IMG/VR virus record: IMGVR_UViG_2609460344_000017
From: a virus
Taxonomy: Duplodnaviria > Heunggongvirae > Uroviricota > Caudoviricetes
Strand: one strand, 5' to 3'
Length of the DNA: 7,501 nt
Shown: piece after piece, positions 1 through 7,501 of the stretch
Position numbering within the stretch: position 1 is the stretch's first letter
Layout of the letters: every line of letters starts with the position of its first letter
The notes under the pieces: model-generated
The model's database searches: none
Seen by the model: the letters and a program-made list of their open reading frames with translations, nothing else
What the model was told of the DNA's origin: nothing
Made by a program: the position numbers and the translations under genes

Positions 1-396
1 GCTCCCTTTCCGGCACGTCTCATTGCCGTATCACTTCCTCCCGAAAAAGCATTAATCAGTAAAACCCGACTGCTCAGCGAGAATCGTCGAAAAGGACGAG
101 TAGTTCAGGCGGAAACGCTGGAAGCAGCGGGCCATGTGCTATTGCTAACATCATTACCGGAAGATGAATATTCAGCAGAGCAAGTGGCTGATTGTTACCG
201 TCTGCGATGGCAAATTGAACTGGCTTTTAAGCGGCTCAAAAGTTTGCTGCACCTGGATGCTTTGCGTGCAAAGGAACCTGAACTCGCGAAAGCGTGGATA
301 TTTGCTAATCTACTCGCCGCATTTTTAATTGACGACATAATCCAGCCATCGCTGGATTCCCCCCCCAGAAGTGCCGGATCCGAAAAGAAGAACTAA
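1..396 (+). CDS. insL: IS4-family DDE transposase (IS186 InsL-like), C-terminal ~131 codons; 5' end cut by the window edge
   Basis: Frame 1 has no stop from base 1 to TAA at 394-396. The translation carries the IS4-family YREK signature Y-x2-R-x3-E-x6-K (YRLRWQIELAFKRLK). The C-terminus ...PRSAGSEKKN matches what I recall of InsL. Confidence 0.85.
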   Translation, partial: APFPARLIAVSLPPEKALISKTRLLSENRRKGRVVQAETLEAAGHVLLLTSLPEDEYSAEQVADCYRLRWQIELAFKRLKSLLHLDALRAKEPELAKAWIFANLLAAFLIDDIIQPSLDSPPRSAGSEKKN

Positions 397-1302: not shown

Positions 1303-2400
1303 ATGACAATTTCATATATTCCTATTCTGAAAGCGAAACGTTCTGAGTTATCAGCTTTATCGCAGCTATCCATTGAAAAGAAATCAAAAATTTTGCCATT
1401 ACTCGAAATTGAACCAGTGCCAATTGACCCTGATTCAGGTATTGCCTTAAAGAGTTATAACGAGACTCTTATAGAGTTCGGAAAGAAAGTCTCAAAATCT
1501 TGCTCAGATATGCAAGGTGTTTATATTGATGGATTATTAATTGAAGAGCATTTTATTTCTCCTGAAGATCATTACCCTATAATAAATGCGGTTAATCAAG
1601 TTAGAGATATGGGGATAAGAGTTATTCCTGTCAGTTCACCAACTCGCCCATCTAACTATAAAAGAGCGATTGATGAATTAATGCAGAATGAAATATGCTT
1701 GAGATTAACCACGTTAGATCTGGTTAACCCACAATTAATAACGCATTACATTAATCATCTGGGAATTCCTTTATCAAATATTGATATAATTATTGACTTA
1801 AGAGATGAGTTAACCGAGGATAAAATTAATTCCGGCGAACTATATACTTTGGCAATGGGATTGATAAACAATCTGGCGCACCTCAATGAATACAGAAAAG
1901 TGATTCTTTCTGGGGGTTCATTTCCTACAGATCTCAGTGATATTTCTGTTGGTCTATATTCTCAACCTCGAATCGAGTGGATTTTATGGCAGAGTTTAAT
2001 GAATAGAAAAGAACTTGCCAGAAATGTGATTTATAGTGATTATGGAGTACAGCACCCCGACTTTAATAGGCTTTCGACGCGATTCCCTAGCGTATCTGCC
2101 AGCGTCAGATACTCTGGAGATAATGACTTTTGGGTATTTCGAGGAAGAGTAGCTAATCGCTTTGGTTATGAACAATATGGTAAACATAGTGAGGATATTC
2201 TTGCTCATCGAGAATATTCAGGGCCTACATTCTGTGCGGGAGATAGAGACATAGAATATTATGCAAACGAGTATCAAGCCTACAAAGCCAATCCCTCTGG
2301 TAACTATAAATTTGGTAGCCCAGAGGTATGGCGTAGGATTGGGCAAAACCATCACATAACTAAGGTTGTTGAGCAACTCGCCACTCTTTACGGGCTTTAA
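1303..2400 (+). CDS. Hypothetical 365-aa protein in an AT-rich island; possibly Beta-protein (PF14350) / sce7725-like, unverified
   Basis: ATG at 1303 with AAGG ribosome-binding site 7 nt upstream; uninterrupted 1098-nt ORF. AT-rich codon usage distinct from the flanks. No Walker, HxH, HEPN or other catalytic motif recognised. The N-terminus MTISYIPILKAKRSELSAL reminds me of Beta-family proteins (recollection only). Confidence 0.8.
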   Translation: MTISYIPILKAKRSELSALSQLSIEKKSKILPLLEIEPVPIDPDSGIALKSYNETLIEFGKKVSKSCSDMQGVYIDGLLIEEHFISPEDHYPIINAVNQVRDMGIRVIPVSSPTRPSNYKRAIDELMQNEICLRLTTLDLVNPQLITHYINHLGIPLSNIDIIIDLRDELTEDKINSGELYTLAMGLINNLAHLNEYRKVILSGGSFPTDLSDISVGLYSQPRIEWILWQSLMNRKELARNVIYSDYGVQHPDFNRLSTRFPSVSASVRYSGDNDFWVFRGRVANRFGYEQYGKHSEDILAHREYSGPTFCAGDRDIEYYANEYQAYKANPSGNYKFGSPEVWRRIGQNHHITKVVEQLATLYGL

Positions 2401-2938
2401 GTTTAACTCGAACAGCTTCACGAAGCTCGCCAACATCCATACTATTGGCGAGTTTTGACCATAAGACGCGTTTAGGTTTATTTTTCAAATTCTGTAGCTC
2501 CCCTACATCACTTAATAGGGAAAGCAATTCATCTTTCCAAAGAAGCATTGTTAAGGAAAGTTTGTCCACTTGTGGATTCAACTTGCTAGTTCGAATTGTT
2601 TTTAAATGGATACCTTGCCGTGCACCTTGCGTAACTTGCTTTATCCCCCACCATGATGGAACTATGCTTAAAGCATCATAAAGATGGCAATCAGAGACAA
2701 CCAAAGTTACTTTATCCATCACTGATGAGTAATGTTGCACCTGCGCTGGTAATCTGAGCAAGTTATCACTCTTGCTCTTCAACTCATAACCATGTATAAG
2801 CCCATTGATCACTGCTATATCAGCTCTGCTAGCCCCTAGATTCATCGTAAACTCATCAATGATTAGGGTGTCAGGATCTTTATGATGATCTCTCAGAATC
2901 TTGGCATGCACAGCCTTTCTTACATCAATGTCTCTCAT
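2360..2938 (-). CDS. 192-aa PD-(D/E)xK-type (RecB/restriction-like) nuclease-fold protein; possibly sce7726-like, unverified
   Basis: ATG at 2938-2936, stop at 2362-2360. Translation contains IIDEF ... SRADIAVINGLIHGYELKS, i.e. acidic residue, then hydrophobic-strand Asp, then E-x-K about 12 residues later, the classic PD-(D/E)xK arrangement. The ribosome-binding site is weak. Its 3' end overlaps the 3' end of the 365-aa gene by 41 bp. Confidence 0.75.
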   Translation of the reverse strand: MRDIDVRKAVHAKILRDHHKDPDTLIIDEFTMNLGASRADIAVINGLIHGYELKSKSDNLLRLPAQVQHYSSVMDKVTLVVSDCHLYDALSIVPSWWGIKQVTQGARQGIHLKTIRTSKLNPQVDKLSLTMLLWKDELLSLLSDVGELQNLKNKPKRVLWSKLANSMDVGELREAVRVKLKARKEWRVAQQP

Positions 2939-5400: not shown

Positions 5401-5826
5401 TCAATGCACAGCCACAATATTTCCTGCAGGGCCACCACGATTCATCTGGTTGAAACCAGCGATCGCCACTGCGACAAAATCATCAGCGTCTCTCACCAGT
5501 CGTTCCCGCGTCTCCACCAGCTCCCGAAAATAAGCTGAACTGTGGCTGCGCATTCTGGCCACCAGCAAAGGTGGCATTGCCTTTTCGATCGCTGGTAACA
5601 ACGCCTGAATTTTTTCAACTGCATCAGGGGTGTCTTTCTCTACCCAGCGGAAAATTTTCTGGGTATTGCGAGCCAGGGCTTCCGGATGGCTGTCGTCATA
5701 CAGTTCTGGGAACGTCATACCCAACTCAAAATAAGCCTGGGTTATTCCAGCTGCTGGAACTTTCTCACCATCAGGATATGCCCAGGCATTCATCGCCATG
5801 CGGATGTGCTCATGTTTGATTTTCAT
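5401..5826 (-). CDS. ydaT: YdaT-like protein (Rac prophage ydaT homolog), 141 aa
   Basis: ATG at 5826-5824 with AAGAGG ribosome-binding site. Size, sequence (MKIKHEHIRMAMNAWAYPDGEK...) and position immediately downstream of a ydaS-like gene match Rac prophage YdaT as I recall it. Confidence 0.8.
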   Translation of the reverse strand: MKIKHEHIRMAMNAWAYPDGEKVPAAGITQAYFELGMTFPELYDDSHPEALARNTQKIFRWVEKDTPDAVEKIQALLPAIEKAMPPLLVARMRSHSSAYFRELVETRERLVRDADDFVAVAIAGFNQMNRGGPAGNIVAVH

Positions 5827-6133
5827 GAATCATTTGCCTCTTGATGCTTCGGGTATGATCGTTTTCGTCATTTGGTTGCTTCATCGACATATTCTGCGAA
5901 TAACATGACGAGCGTCGTAAGTATGTCCAATCAACATCAGGACGAAGTTCTTCACACAGGACACCACCTTTTGTTGCTCGTTCAATCGCAGGACATCTCT
6001 CAGCAGGCAACTGACGTACACCTTTGATCCATTGATTTACGCTTGGAGGAGATACACCTAAAAGCCTAGCCATTGCTGATTGCCCACCGACAACAGCACA
6101 AGCTCGTTTGAATGAATAGTTATCTTTTTTCAT
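5810..6133 (-). CDS. ydaS: YdaS-like Cro-type helix-turn-helix protein, 107 aa
   Basis: Preferred start is ATG at 6133-6131 with GGAG about 10 nt upstream; the ORF track's upstream start at 6154 lacks a ribosome-binding site. Helix-turn-helix region AMARLLGVSPPSVNQWIKG. Divergent from the repressor gene. Overlaps the ydaT-like start by 17 bp. Confidence 0.8.
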   Translation of the reverse strand: MKKDNYSFKRACAVVGGQSAMARLLGVSPPSVNQWIKGVRQLPAERCPAIERATKGGVLCEELRPDVDWTYLRRSSCYSQNMSMKQPNDENDHTRSIKRQMIHENQT

Positions 6134-6160: not shown

Positions 6161-6228
6161 ATATTAGGCTTAGCCTAATGCGATTGTCAATAGGCTATGC
6201 CTAACGCTTCGAGAGTAGGGATTGCCTA
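6161..6228. promoter_or_regulatory. OR-like tripartite operator with a PR-like promoter for ydaS-ydaT, between the divergent racR-like and ydaS-like genes
   Basis: Three inverted repeats of the form TAGGC-N3-GCCTA: 6164-6178 (TTAGGC-TTA-GCCTAA, perfect), 6191-6203 (perfect 5-bp arms) and 6216-6228 (4 of 5). Centres are 25-26 bp apart. A minus-strand promoter, -35 TTGACA (reverse complement of 6185-6190) and -10 TAATAT (reverse complement of 6161-6166), overlaps site 1. Confidence 0.55.
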
Positions 6229-6257
6229 ACGCGATGCGCATAGGAGACTATTAAGCA

Positions 6258-6734
6258 ATGCTTAGTGGTAAAGACTTAGGCCGAGCGATAGAGCAGGCCA
6301 TCAACAAAAAAATTGCATCAGGAGCCGTCAAATCAAAGGCGGAAATCGCACGTCATTTCAAAGTCCAACCACCATCAATCCATGACTGGATTAAGAAAGG
6401 TTCGATAAGTAAAGACAAACTTCCAGAACTATGGCGTTTCTTTTCTGATGTGGTTGGTCCAGAGCATTGGGGGCTTAACGAATACCCCATACCAACCCCA
6501 TCCACTTCAGATACAAAAAGTGAACTTTTAGACATAAACAGCCTTTATCAAGCCGCCTCTGATGAAAAAAGAGCAATTGTGGCTTTCCTCTTATCTGGAA
6601 ATGCTACGGAGCCTAGTTGGGTTGATCATGACGTTCGCGCCTACATTGCCGCAATGGAAATGAAGGTAGCTAACTATCTGAAAAATCAAGAATCAAAACG
6701 GAAAAGCCAGAACATCACCAAGACAGGAACTTAA
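6258..6734 (+). CDS. racR: RacR-like prophage repressor (XRE-type helix-turn-helix), 158 aa
   Basis: ATG at 6258 with TAGGAGA ribosome-binding site 10 nt upstream. Helix-turn-helix region SKAEIARHFKVQPPSIHDWIKKG. Divergent from ydaS-ydaT, as in the Rac immunity region. Confidence 0.8.
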   Translation: MLSGKDLGRAIEQAINKKIASGAVKSKAEIARHFKVQPPSIHDWIKKGSISKDKLPELWRFFSDVVGPEHWGLNEYPIPTPSTSDTKSELLDINSLYQAASDEKRAIVAFLLSGNATEPSWVDHDVRAYIAAMEMKVANYLKNQESKRKSQNITKTGT

Positions 6735-6748
6735 ACTTATATGGTCCG

Positions 6749-6778
6749 ACGGGAAATTCCTAGTTCCCGTTAGTTAAC
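6749..6778 (+). terminator. Candidate intrinsic terminator after the racR-like gene
   Basis: Perfect 7-bp stem ACGGGAA / TTCCCGT (6749-6755 and 6764-6770) with an 8-nt loop, followed by TAGTTAACTC. The tail is only moderately U-rich. Confidence 0.35.
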
Positions 6779-6830
6779 TCCTACTACCTCTCCCACAAAC
6801 CATCACCTATTAGGTCGCACCCAAATCATT

Positions 6831-6871
6831 AGGCATAGCCTATTGACAAGCAATTAGGCATTTCCTATAGT
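6831..6871 (+). promoter_or_regulatory. OL/PL-like element: consensus sigma70 promoter overlapped by two operator repeats
   Basis: -35 TTGACA (6843-6848), 17-bp spacer, -10 TATAGT (6866-6871). Operator-type repeats TAGGC-ATA-GCCTA (6831-6843) and TAGGC-ATT-TCCTA (6855-6867) overlap the -35 and spacer/-10. Confidence 0.5.
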
Positions 6872-7052
6872 TTTCCCATACCAACCCATCCCGTCCCACA
6901 CAATACAGGGCAATACCTAGAGTTACCCGGCAGTGGTCAGGGATTAAGTAGCCAGCCCGAGGCGTATGAACATGACGGCGGGAACACTTTGTATAACAGC
7001 GCAGCAGGTTTTTAGTTCCGCTACCCCAGCGTTAAGGGGAAATGAGGTCAGC

Positions 7053-7205
7053 ATGGATACTATCGAGCTTGGCAACAACGAATCTCTGGTATGTGGCGTG
7101 TTTCCCAATCAGGACGGCACGTTTACCGCGATGACGTATACCAAAAGTAAAACGTTTAAAACCGAAGCTGCCGCGCATCGCTGGTTAGCCAGAAACGCTA
7201 ACTGA
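7053..7205 (+). CDS. Small prophage protein (50 aa), YdaF-like by position
   Basis: ATG at 7053 with GAGG ribosome-binding site 5 nt upstream; stop at 7203-7205. Lies downstream of the PL-like promoter on the same strand as racR. An in-frame ATG at 6966 would give 79 aa but has a poorly spaced ribosome-binding site. Confidence 0.5.
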   Translation: MDTIELGNNESLVCGVFPNQDGTFTAMTYTKSKTFKTEAAAHRWLARNAN

Positions 7206-7501
7206 TTAGCGCCAGTAAAAACAGGTTTCCACAGGTTAATTTACCCTGAAAAGTCAGGGCATAACACGAAAGCGCACGGCGAGATCCCTTTGCATATAAG
7301 TCTTGTCGTTAAATTTCTTCGACCGTGCGCTTCTGGTTGTGGCAATCCGCGAAATGGCGCGGCGGTAAGTATGGCGGGGGTATTTCTTCCCCCGTTGAGG
7401 ACACCGGGTTGTCAGGGTGACCATACGCTTAAGTGACAACCCCGCTGCAACGCCCTCTGTTATCAATTTTCTGGTGACGTTTGGCGGTATCAGTTTTACT
7501 C

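Follow-up and report, generated by a model that had tools for sequence, protein, structure and literature searches.

A probable early-left operator-promoter (OL/PL) downstream of the repressor gene racR in a Rac-like Escherichia coli prophage

The stretch of DNA analyzed here (7,501 nt, hereafter the window) carries in its 3' third the immunity region of a Rac-like lambdoid E. coli prophage. Between positions 5800 and 7300, its identity is 99.9% with E. coli O103 RM8385 and about 87% with the Rac prophage of K-12. The features of the region are collected in Table 1. The product of the repressor gene racR returned no family in a Pfam search. On one side racR is flanked by a divergent ydaS-like gene and ydaT, and on the other side by a small gene of the DUF1391 family and, at the end of the window, by the start of the gene of the small RNA DicF. 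The Rfam match to DicF covers the first 33 nt (model positions 1-33 of 52), with the 3' end missing. In RM8385, the plus strand continues from dicF with dicB, ydfD, an exonuclease gene and the excisionase (xis) and integrase (int) genes, whereas the corresponding strand of K-12 Rac runs on through ydaG, ydaF, kilR, ydaE, racC, recE and recT. Because the start of DicF was found at 7469-7501, the leftward operon, presumably under RacR control, is one that carries dicF (and, in the 99.9% identical relative, dicB) instead of the kilR of K-12 Rac.

The left part of the window holds several other elements. A hok/sok type I toxin-antitoxin locus lies on the minus strand at 590-915, with the sok RNA (RF01794, 119.8 bits) at 740-915 and a Hok-family open reading frame (ORF) within 590-802. 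It is followed by a pair of convergent, overlapping ORFs at 1303-2400 (plus strand) and 2360-2938 (minus strand), which is missing from the otherwise similar RM8385 prophage. One ORF of this pair belongs to the Beta_protein family (PF14350, E = 4e-52; PADLOC model PD-Lambda-2_C, E = 2e-41), the other (192 aa) hits the PADLOC model 'cll' (E = 2e-28), and the pair may represent anti-phage defence cargo. A C-terminal fragment of a DDE transposase (PF01609) at 136-396 (plus strand) points to decay or rearrangement of the window's left end.

Table 1. Positions of the features in and around the racR immunity region (window coordinates)
Feature	Position	Strand	Description and evidence
ydaT	5401-5826	-	
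ydaS-like gene	5810-6133	-	Cro analogue, divergent from racR; Pfam YdaS_toxin E = 4e-30, P22_Cro E = 1e-8
OR partner cluster	6161-6264	.	operators at 6165-6177, 6191-6203 and 6216-6228; weaker operator at 6252-6264 over the racR ATG
ydaS promoter (PR/PydaS)	-35 6190-6185, -10 6166-6161	-	
racR	6258-6734	+	prophage repressor, 158 aa; ORF, RM8385 annotation 'DNA-binding transcriptional repressor RacR'
Hairpin 3' of racR	6749-6770	+	stem ACGGGAA/TTCCCGT, 8-nt loop; sequence
Conserved 16-bp block	6800-6815	.	CCATCACCTATTAGGT; holds the 11-bp perfect palindrome ACCTATTAGGT (6805-6815)
OL2, putative RacR operator, promoter-distal	6830-6842	.	TAGGCATAGCCTA, perfect; 26.7 bits, top site of the window
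PL-like sigma-70 promoter	6843-6871	+	TTGACA (6843-6848), 17 nt, TATAGT (6866-6871); 11/12 match, predicted +1 at about 6878
OL1, putative RacR operator, promoter-proximal	6855-6867	.	TAGGCATTTCCTA, one mismatch; 20.2 bits
5' leader of the early-left transcript	6878-7052	+	85-93% identity in prophages with LexA-type and paaR2-type repressors
DUF1391 gene (ydfA/ydaF-like)	7053-7205	+	50 aa, first gene of the operon; PF07151 E = 9e-29, RM8385 annotation
DicF sRNA gene, 5' part	7469-7501	+	truncated by the end of the window; Rfam RF00039, 42.6 bits, E = 7e-7

The published RacR consensus is (T/A)TAGGC-n3-GCCTA(T/A) (PMC9638921). Downstream of racR, OL2 (with flanks, tTAGGCATAGCCTAt) and OL1 (with flanks, tTAGGCATTTCCTAt) both fit this 13-bp inverted repeat with its T/A flanks; the single mismatch of OL1 is TCCTA in place of GCCTA. 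The original prediction had the motif occurring twice over a promoter, and both occurrences are present, each one base lower than first numbered. With at most one mismatch allowed, TAGGC-N3-GCCTA is found five times in the window (starting at 6165, 6191, 6216, 6830 and 6855) where 0.10 matches are expected, a count reached in none of 200 shuffled controls. All five fall within 703 bp and form two clusters flanking racR, one downstream of it and one in the racR-ydaS intergenic region. It had been set out beforehand that a similar frequency elsewhere in the genome would speak against the motif; 150 kb of RM8385 yielded four isolated one-mismatch sites, none of them perfect or paired, and the fifth match there was the first operator of the locus itself. 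The same picture was obtained with a weight matrix that was trained on other loci, with the window excluded from training. Six sites of the window scored at least 16.9 bits (6165, 6191, 6216, 6252, 6830 and 6855), and the 150-kb RM8385 background held no site at or above that score. A third operator near the promoter was not found: the next-best nearby site (6771-6783) scored 7.8 bits, a level also attained by five background sites per 150 kb. The downstream cluster thus consists of two operators only, versus three in lambda, Qin and CP-933P. The prediction that racR has arrays of the same operator on both sides therefore stands as regards the motif, while the downstream group is a pair and not an array of three. 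The separation of the two clusters, given as about 650 bp, agrees with centre-to-centre distances of 614-690 bp between the OR and OL sites.

The two downstream operators are built into a promoter. As had been proposed, TTGACA-17-TATAGT is a near-consensus promoter that reads away from racR on the plus strand. It is the sole match of at least 11/12 in the window, for which simulation gave an expectation of 0.17 per 7.5 kb; by itself such a match is modestly unlikely, and it is its placement between and over two operators that matters. OL2 directly adjoins the -35 element, with its centre at about -42 relative to the predicted +1, and OL1 fills the spacer between -35 and -10, with its final two bases serving as the first two of the -10 element and its centre at about -17. 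The small gene into which the promoter reads had been called ydaF-like; it is rather a ydfA-like DUF1391 gene, whose operon runs on into DicF. The promoter of ydaS, on the opposite side of racR, shares this architecture. Read towards ydaS, it is TAGGCATAGCCTA-TTGACA-N7-TAGGCTAAGCCTA-ATAT; the PL module opens with the same 20 nt (TAGGCATAGCCTATTGACAA). The spacing between neighbouring sites is 25 bp at OL and, at OR, 26 and 25 bp.

Between racR and OL2 lie two further elements. The hairpin 3' of racR differs from that of the K-12 lineage by one compensatory change (G-C to A-T). Its stem is not followed by a T-run and a terminator scan made no call; the hairpin is probably the end of the racR transcript or an insulator, analogous to timm of lambda. 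In LexA-type prophages (loci L015 and L016, about 1910-1935), a canonical terminator is present in its place. The second element, the 16-bp block, precedes the predicted +1 by about 63-78 bp. It is invariant in seven Escherichia racR loci from both lineages, with diverged flanks, and absent from the Mixta, Proteus, Pseudomonadota metagenome-assembled genome (MAG) and Achromobacter loci. Within its 11-bp palindrome it contains the CCTA-T-TAGG palindrome (CCTATTAGG, 6806-6814) that the original prediction had included in the operator cluster. The spacing of 26 bp between the centre of this palindrome (6810) and that of OL2 was initially suggestive of an operator. The palindrome is real, but it is not a RacR-type site: we rejected it as a third operator in view of a weight-matrix score of -28 in register, a score of 0.3 for the overlapping site at 6811 (TAGGTCGCACCCA) and its restriction to Escherichia.

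Twelve RacR-like loci were drawn from a genome collection for comparison. A pair of sites 25 bp apart is present downstream of the RacR-type gene in E. coli K-12, E. ruysiae, Mixta, a Pseudomonadota MAG, Proteus mirabilis and two Achromobacter loci, with RacR aa identities of 64% (Mixta), 58% (Pseudomonadota MAG) and 61% (Proteus mirabilis). What is conserved is the module [operator]TTGACA-N6-[operator], in which the last TA of the second operator opens the -10 element (TAATAT, TAACAT, TACTAT or TATAGT), within unrelated flanking sequences. Proteus has an additional site 74 bp upstream, which the other genera do not have. The RacR-like loci of Klebsiella, Nitrosomonas and Aeromonas showed no site pair within 2.4-2.9 kb downstream. 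In the two Achromobacter loci (L011, 2501-3601, and L013), the repressor is a fusion that joins a RacR-like N-terminal DNA-binding domain (77-78% identity) with a Peptidase_S24 domain, and the site pair lies 1.9-2.6 kb from the start of the repressor gene. As these fusions keep the pair at such a distance, the operator follows the DNA-binding domain and the distance between OL and OR is not fixed. Peptidase_S24 is an autocleavage domain; the operators and the two-operator promoter module are unchanged next to it. Two small plus-strand ORFs and one minus-strand ORF separate the repressor gene from PL in L011. Among the seven Escherichia loci, the half-site bases are invariant, and changes occur in the N3 spacer, at the non-consensus base and in the stretch between the -35 element and OL1.

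A 49-bp query comprising the module matched 1096 of 5426 complete E. coli genomes (about a fifth). Genomes with a match contained it at a median of two unmapped places, the number that PL and PR together would give. At least 80% of the module was present in 1095 genomes, and most queries from the racR region were present in 1084-1086. Several thousand E. coli genomes match only from position 6877 onwards, just past the -10 element and one base before the predicted +1 (6878). In the loci that were inspected among these, the upstream repressor differs: two classes are of the LexA type and one is of the paaR2-paaA2-parE2 type. When aligned, each of these other immunity types has its own TTGAC -35 element in the same column as that of the window. 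The LexA-type loci of O111 and AR_0104 carry a palindrome of their own at this place, GGTAAC-N4-GTTACC, which recurs in similar form in the intergenic region of these loci. An immunity module that ends at the start point of PL would place the start of homology next to the +1, as here. Because sequence is shared with prophages of other repressor types only from 6877 on and the module co-occurs with racR in approximately 1095 genomes, these comparisons indicate that OL/PL belongs to the immunity module and travels with the repressor rather than with the downstream genes.

The predicted leader of the transcript is homologous in prophages with three other repressor types. It folds worse than its shuffled versions (z = +1.68), is predicted to be unstructured and has no match in Rfam at E ≤ 1; a structured or antiterminator (put/nut-like) leader RNA was therefore rejected. 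The start of the leader is rich in C and poor in G (17 C and 4 G in the first 40 nt) and is a possible rut-like loading site for Rho. A C-rich, unstructured leader would fit the reported silencing of kilR by Rho/NusG in Rac (summarised in PMC12482147). A second lambdoid immunity region of RM8385, of the paaR2-paaA2-parE2 (CP-933P) type, is situated about 17 kb from the racR locus (L021, 2,322,347-2,323,685) and has the same leader and ydfA downstream as the window. The intergenic region between its repressor and cro genes contains a one-mismatch RacR-like site (TAAGCAAAGCCTA), which may be due to chance.

Based on the position of the module, its conservation and the sites within it, we consider it highly probable that 6830-6871 is the early-left operator-promoter (OL/PL) of a RacR-type lambdoid immunity region. 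The lambda-like layout originally proposed is borne out by the order of racR, its 3' hairpin, two operators in a near-consensus promoter and early-left genes, with the module kept in five genera. As a strong sigma-70 promoter, PL would start transcription at about 6878 and read into DUF1391/ydfA and DicF and then, as in the 99.9% identical relative, into dicB, ydfD, the exonuclease gene, xis and int. In a lysogen, RacR dimers would occupy OL1 and OL2, 25 bp apart as at OR, and block RNA polymerase by steric exclusion, as at PR, which would prevent expression of the division inhibitors and of the genes for recombination and excision. A drop in RacR would let PL fire; the Cro-like YdaS probably binds OL1 and OL2 at a later stage, by analogy with CP-933P.

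Published data on RacR are in line with such a promoter. In the K-12 intergenic region, RacR footprints and promoters have been mapped (PMC9638921), and the footprints cover the racR-ydaS intergenic region only, from -186 to +85 relative to the racR start (PMC9638921; also PMC5700373). Depletion or silencing of RacR derepresses ydaF, ydaG, kilR, ydaE, racC, recET, xisR and intR (PMC6765115, PMC11014345, bioRxiv 10.64898/2026.09.06.749655); upon lowering of RacR, ydaC, kilR and ralA rise more than 70-fold and ydaF, ydaG, ydaE and racC about 40-fold (PMC6765115, PMC11014345). The leftward part of this response could also be partly indirect via YdaS/YdaT, or arise from read-through of racR; in a study of Rho, kil was considered to be expressed from transcripts that start at the racR promoter and run past a terminator within racR (PMC4150792). 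The RacR papers surveyed (PMC9638921, PMC5700373, PMC11014345, PMC6765115 and Jobling's letter) describe no operators or promoter downstream of racR; the older Rac literature may hold an earlier report of a Rac PL. Within the papers surveyed, OL/PL appears to be undescribed for Rac, though it is implied by the published expression data.

Three other readings of the module were weighed against OL/PL. The OL pair could be mainly auxiliary, bridging to OR via a RacR octamer and thereby tightening both the repression of the ydaS promoter and the autoregulation of racR, with the local promoter being secondary. Size-exclusion chromatography does show RacR as an octamer (PMC11014345), four dimers divided equally between OL and OR would add up to eight subunits as in lambda, and the sites in both clusters are spaced by 25-26 bp. 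Yet the sites are fused to a full -35/-10 pair in every genus, which makes promoter control the conserved feature; the distance between OL and OR varies from about 0.65 kb here to 1.9-2.6 kb in Achromobacter, and the octamer has been assigned by its authors to four intergenic sites (PMC11014345). We regard a mainly auxiliary role as unlikely, and note that it is compatible with OL/PL rather than exclusive of it. Less likely still is that the sites chiefly serve the Cro-like YdaS, or another factor, in closing early-left transcription during lytic growth. PaaR2 and YdaS both repress PL933P in CP-933P (PMC8630535), and competition between RacR and YdaS for shared operators has been reported in Rac (PMC11014345). 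Against this, the sites fit a consensus that was derived from RacR footprints (PMC9638921), they are constant wherever the RacR-like N-terminal domain is kept, even when the C-terminal domain is swapped, and lysogens keep the leftward genes silent until RacR is lowered (PMC6765115).

The module could finally be a non-functional leftover, either a copy of the PR operator/promoter in decay or sites clustered by chance. The 20 nt that it shares with the PR module, the chance expectation of 0.17 promoters per window and the signs of prophage decay, such as the transposase fragment at 136-396, would be in keeping with this. However, the module is kept across genera with unrelated flanks, the half-sites of the Escherichia loci are invariant next to diverged sequence, comparable sites are absent from the 150-kb background, and the boundary of homology with other immunity types adjoins the predicted +1. 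A leftover is therefore strongly disfavoured and, in our estimation, hardly credible.

OL/PL itself, as an operator-promoter of the RacR type, would be an expected and ordinary feature that requires no concept beyond the lambda paradigm. Rac lysogens cannot do without RacR, a requirement that recent work attributes solely to the ydaS-ydaT promoter. If true, a second strong promoter under direct repression would be a direct cause of the derepression of kilR (in K-12) or DicF-DicB (here), of recET and of xis-int, and would account for excision of the prophage when RacR falls. OL would likewise offer the RacR octamer a further target beyond the four intergenic sites. A more speculative extension, which we hold to be less likely than not, is that an octamer with one pair of dimers at OL and the other at the ydaS promoter closes a loop of approximately 0.65 kb around racR, and that the invariant palindromic block at 6800-6815, 20 bp upstream, may be bound by another factor, from host or phage, which adjusts the activity of the promoter. 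If true, the loop would constitute a compact, lambda-like long-range switch whose repressor oligomerises through an unrelated domain that is not cleavable, and OL would be the missing half of the octamer target. For synthetic use, the module would offer a clean, very strong and tightly repressed promoter/operator pair.

Among known systems, the layout PRM-cI-timm-OL/PL-N of lambda is mirrored by racR, the hairpin, OL/PL and the early-left genes. Both systems have a repressor gene, a terminator (here the putative one in the 3' hairpin) and operators over a strong promoter that reads in the same direction into kil-type, recombination, xis and int genes. In both, one operator sequence is used at the two clusters, neighbouring sites are approximately 25 bp apart and the repressor is reported to be octameric. 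Unlike lambda, the Rac-like locus has two OL operators instead of three. The RacR site is a 13-bp TAGGC-N3-GCCTA, whereas the lambda operator is a 17-bp site, and OL and OR are about 0.65 kb apart here versus 2.4 kb in lambda. The C-terminal domain of RacR is unrelated to the S24 domain of CI/LexA, so RecA-mediated cleavage of RacR is not expected. No N gene or nutL was recognised.

PL933P with OL1-3 of CP-933P represents a sister immunity type, with YdaS and YdaT partners, an octameric repressor and, as here, -35 and -10 elements that copy those of PR. PL933P is repressed about 100-fold by PaaR2 or YdaS (Jurenas et al. 2021, PMC8630535). The paaR2-type prophage of RM8385 has a promoter at the same aligned position, before the same conserved leader and ydfA, which is the place where PL933P has been described. 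CP-933P differs from the Rac-like locus by another repressor, repeat operators of the GTTTAGTAA type, three reported operators and a toxin-antitoxin pair between the repressor gene and PL. In Qin, dicBp drives the orthologous operon ydfA ... dicF, dicB, ydfD, likewise from a promoter between the repressor gene and ydfA. DicA is, similarly, a short non-cleavable repressor whose derepression is toxic via division inhibitors. Transcription from dicBp, which has three reported operators and drives ydfABC-dicF-dicB, rises 22-fold upon deletion of dicA (PMC10448788). It is distinguished by DicA operators, three in number, and by a much shorter leader, of which only about the last 50 nt before ydfA are in common with the window. 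The Qin leader is non-homologous at its 5' end, and the published 1,146-nt ydfABC-dicF transcript does not line up in length, so that it bears neither way on the +1 predicted here. The K-12 racR-ydaS operators O1-O3(4) have the same consensus and a TTGACA with an operator on each side (PMC9638921, PMC5700373), although these lie upstream of racR and have been footprinted (Wisniewska et al. 2022; Krishnamurthi et al. 2017). In its place within the immunity region, 6830-6871 would be the counterpart of PL of lambda, dicBp of Qin and PL933P of CP-933P.
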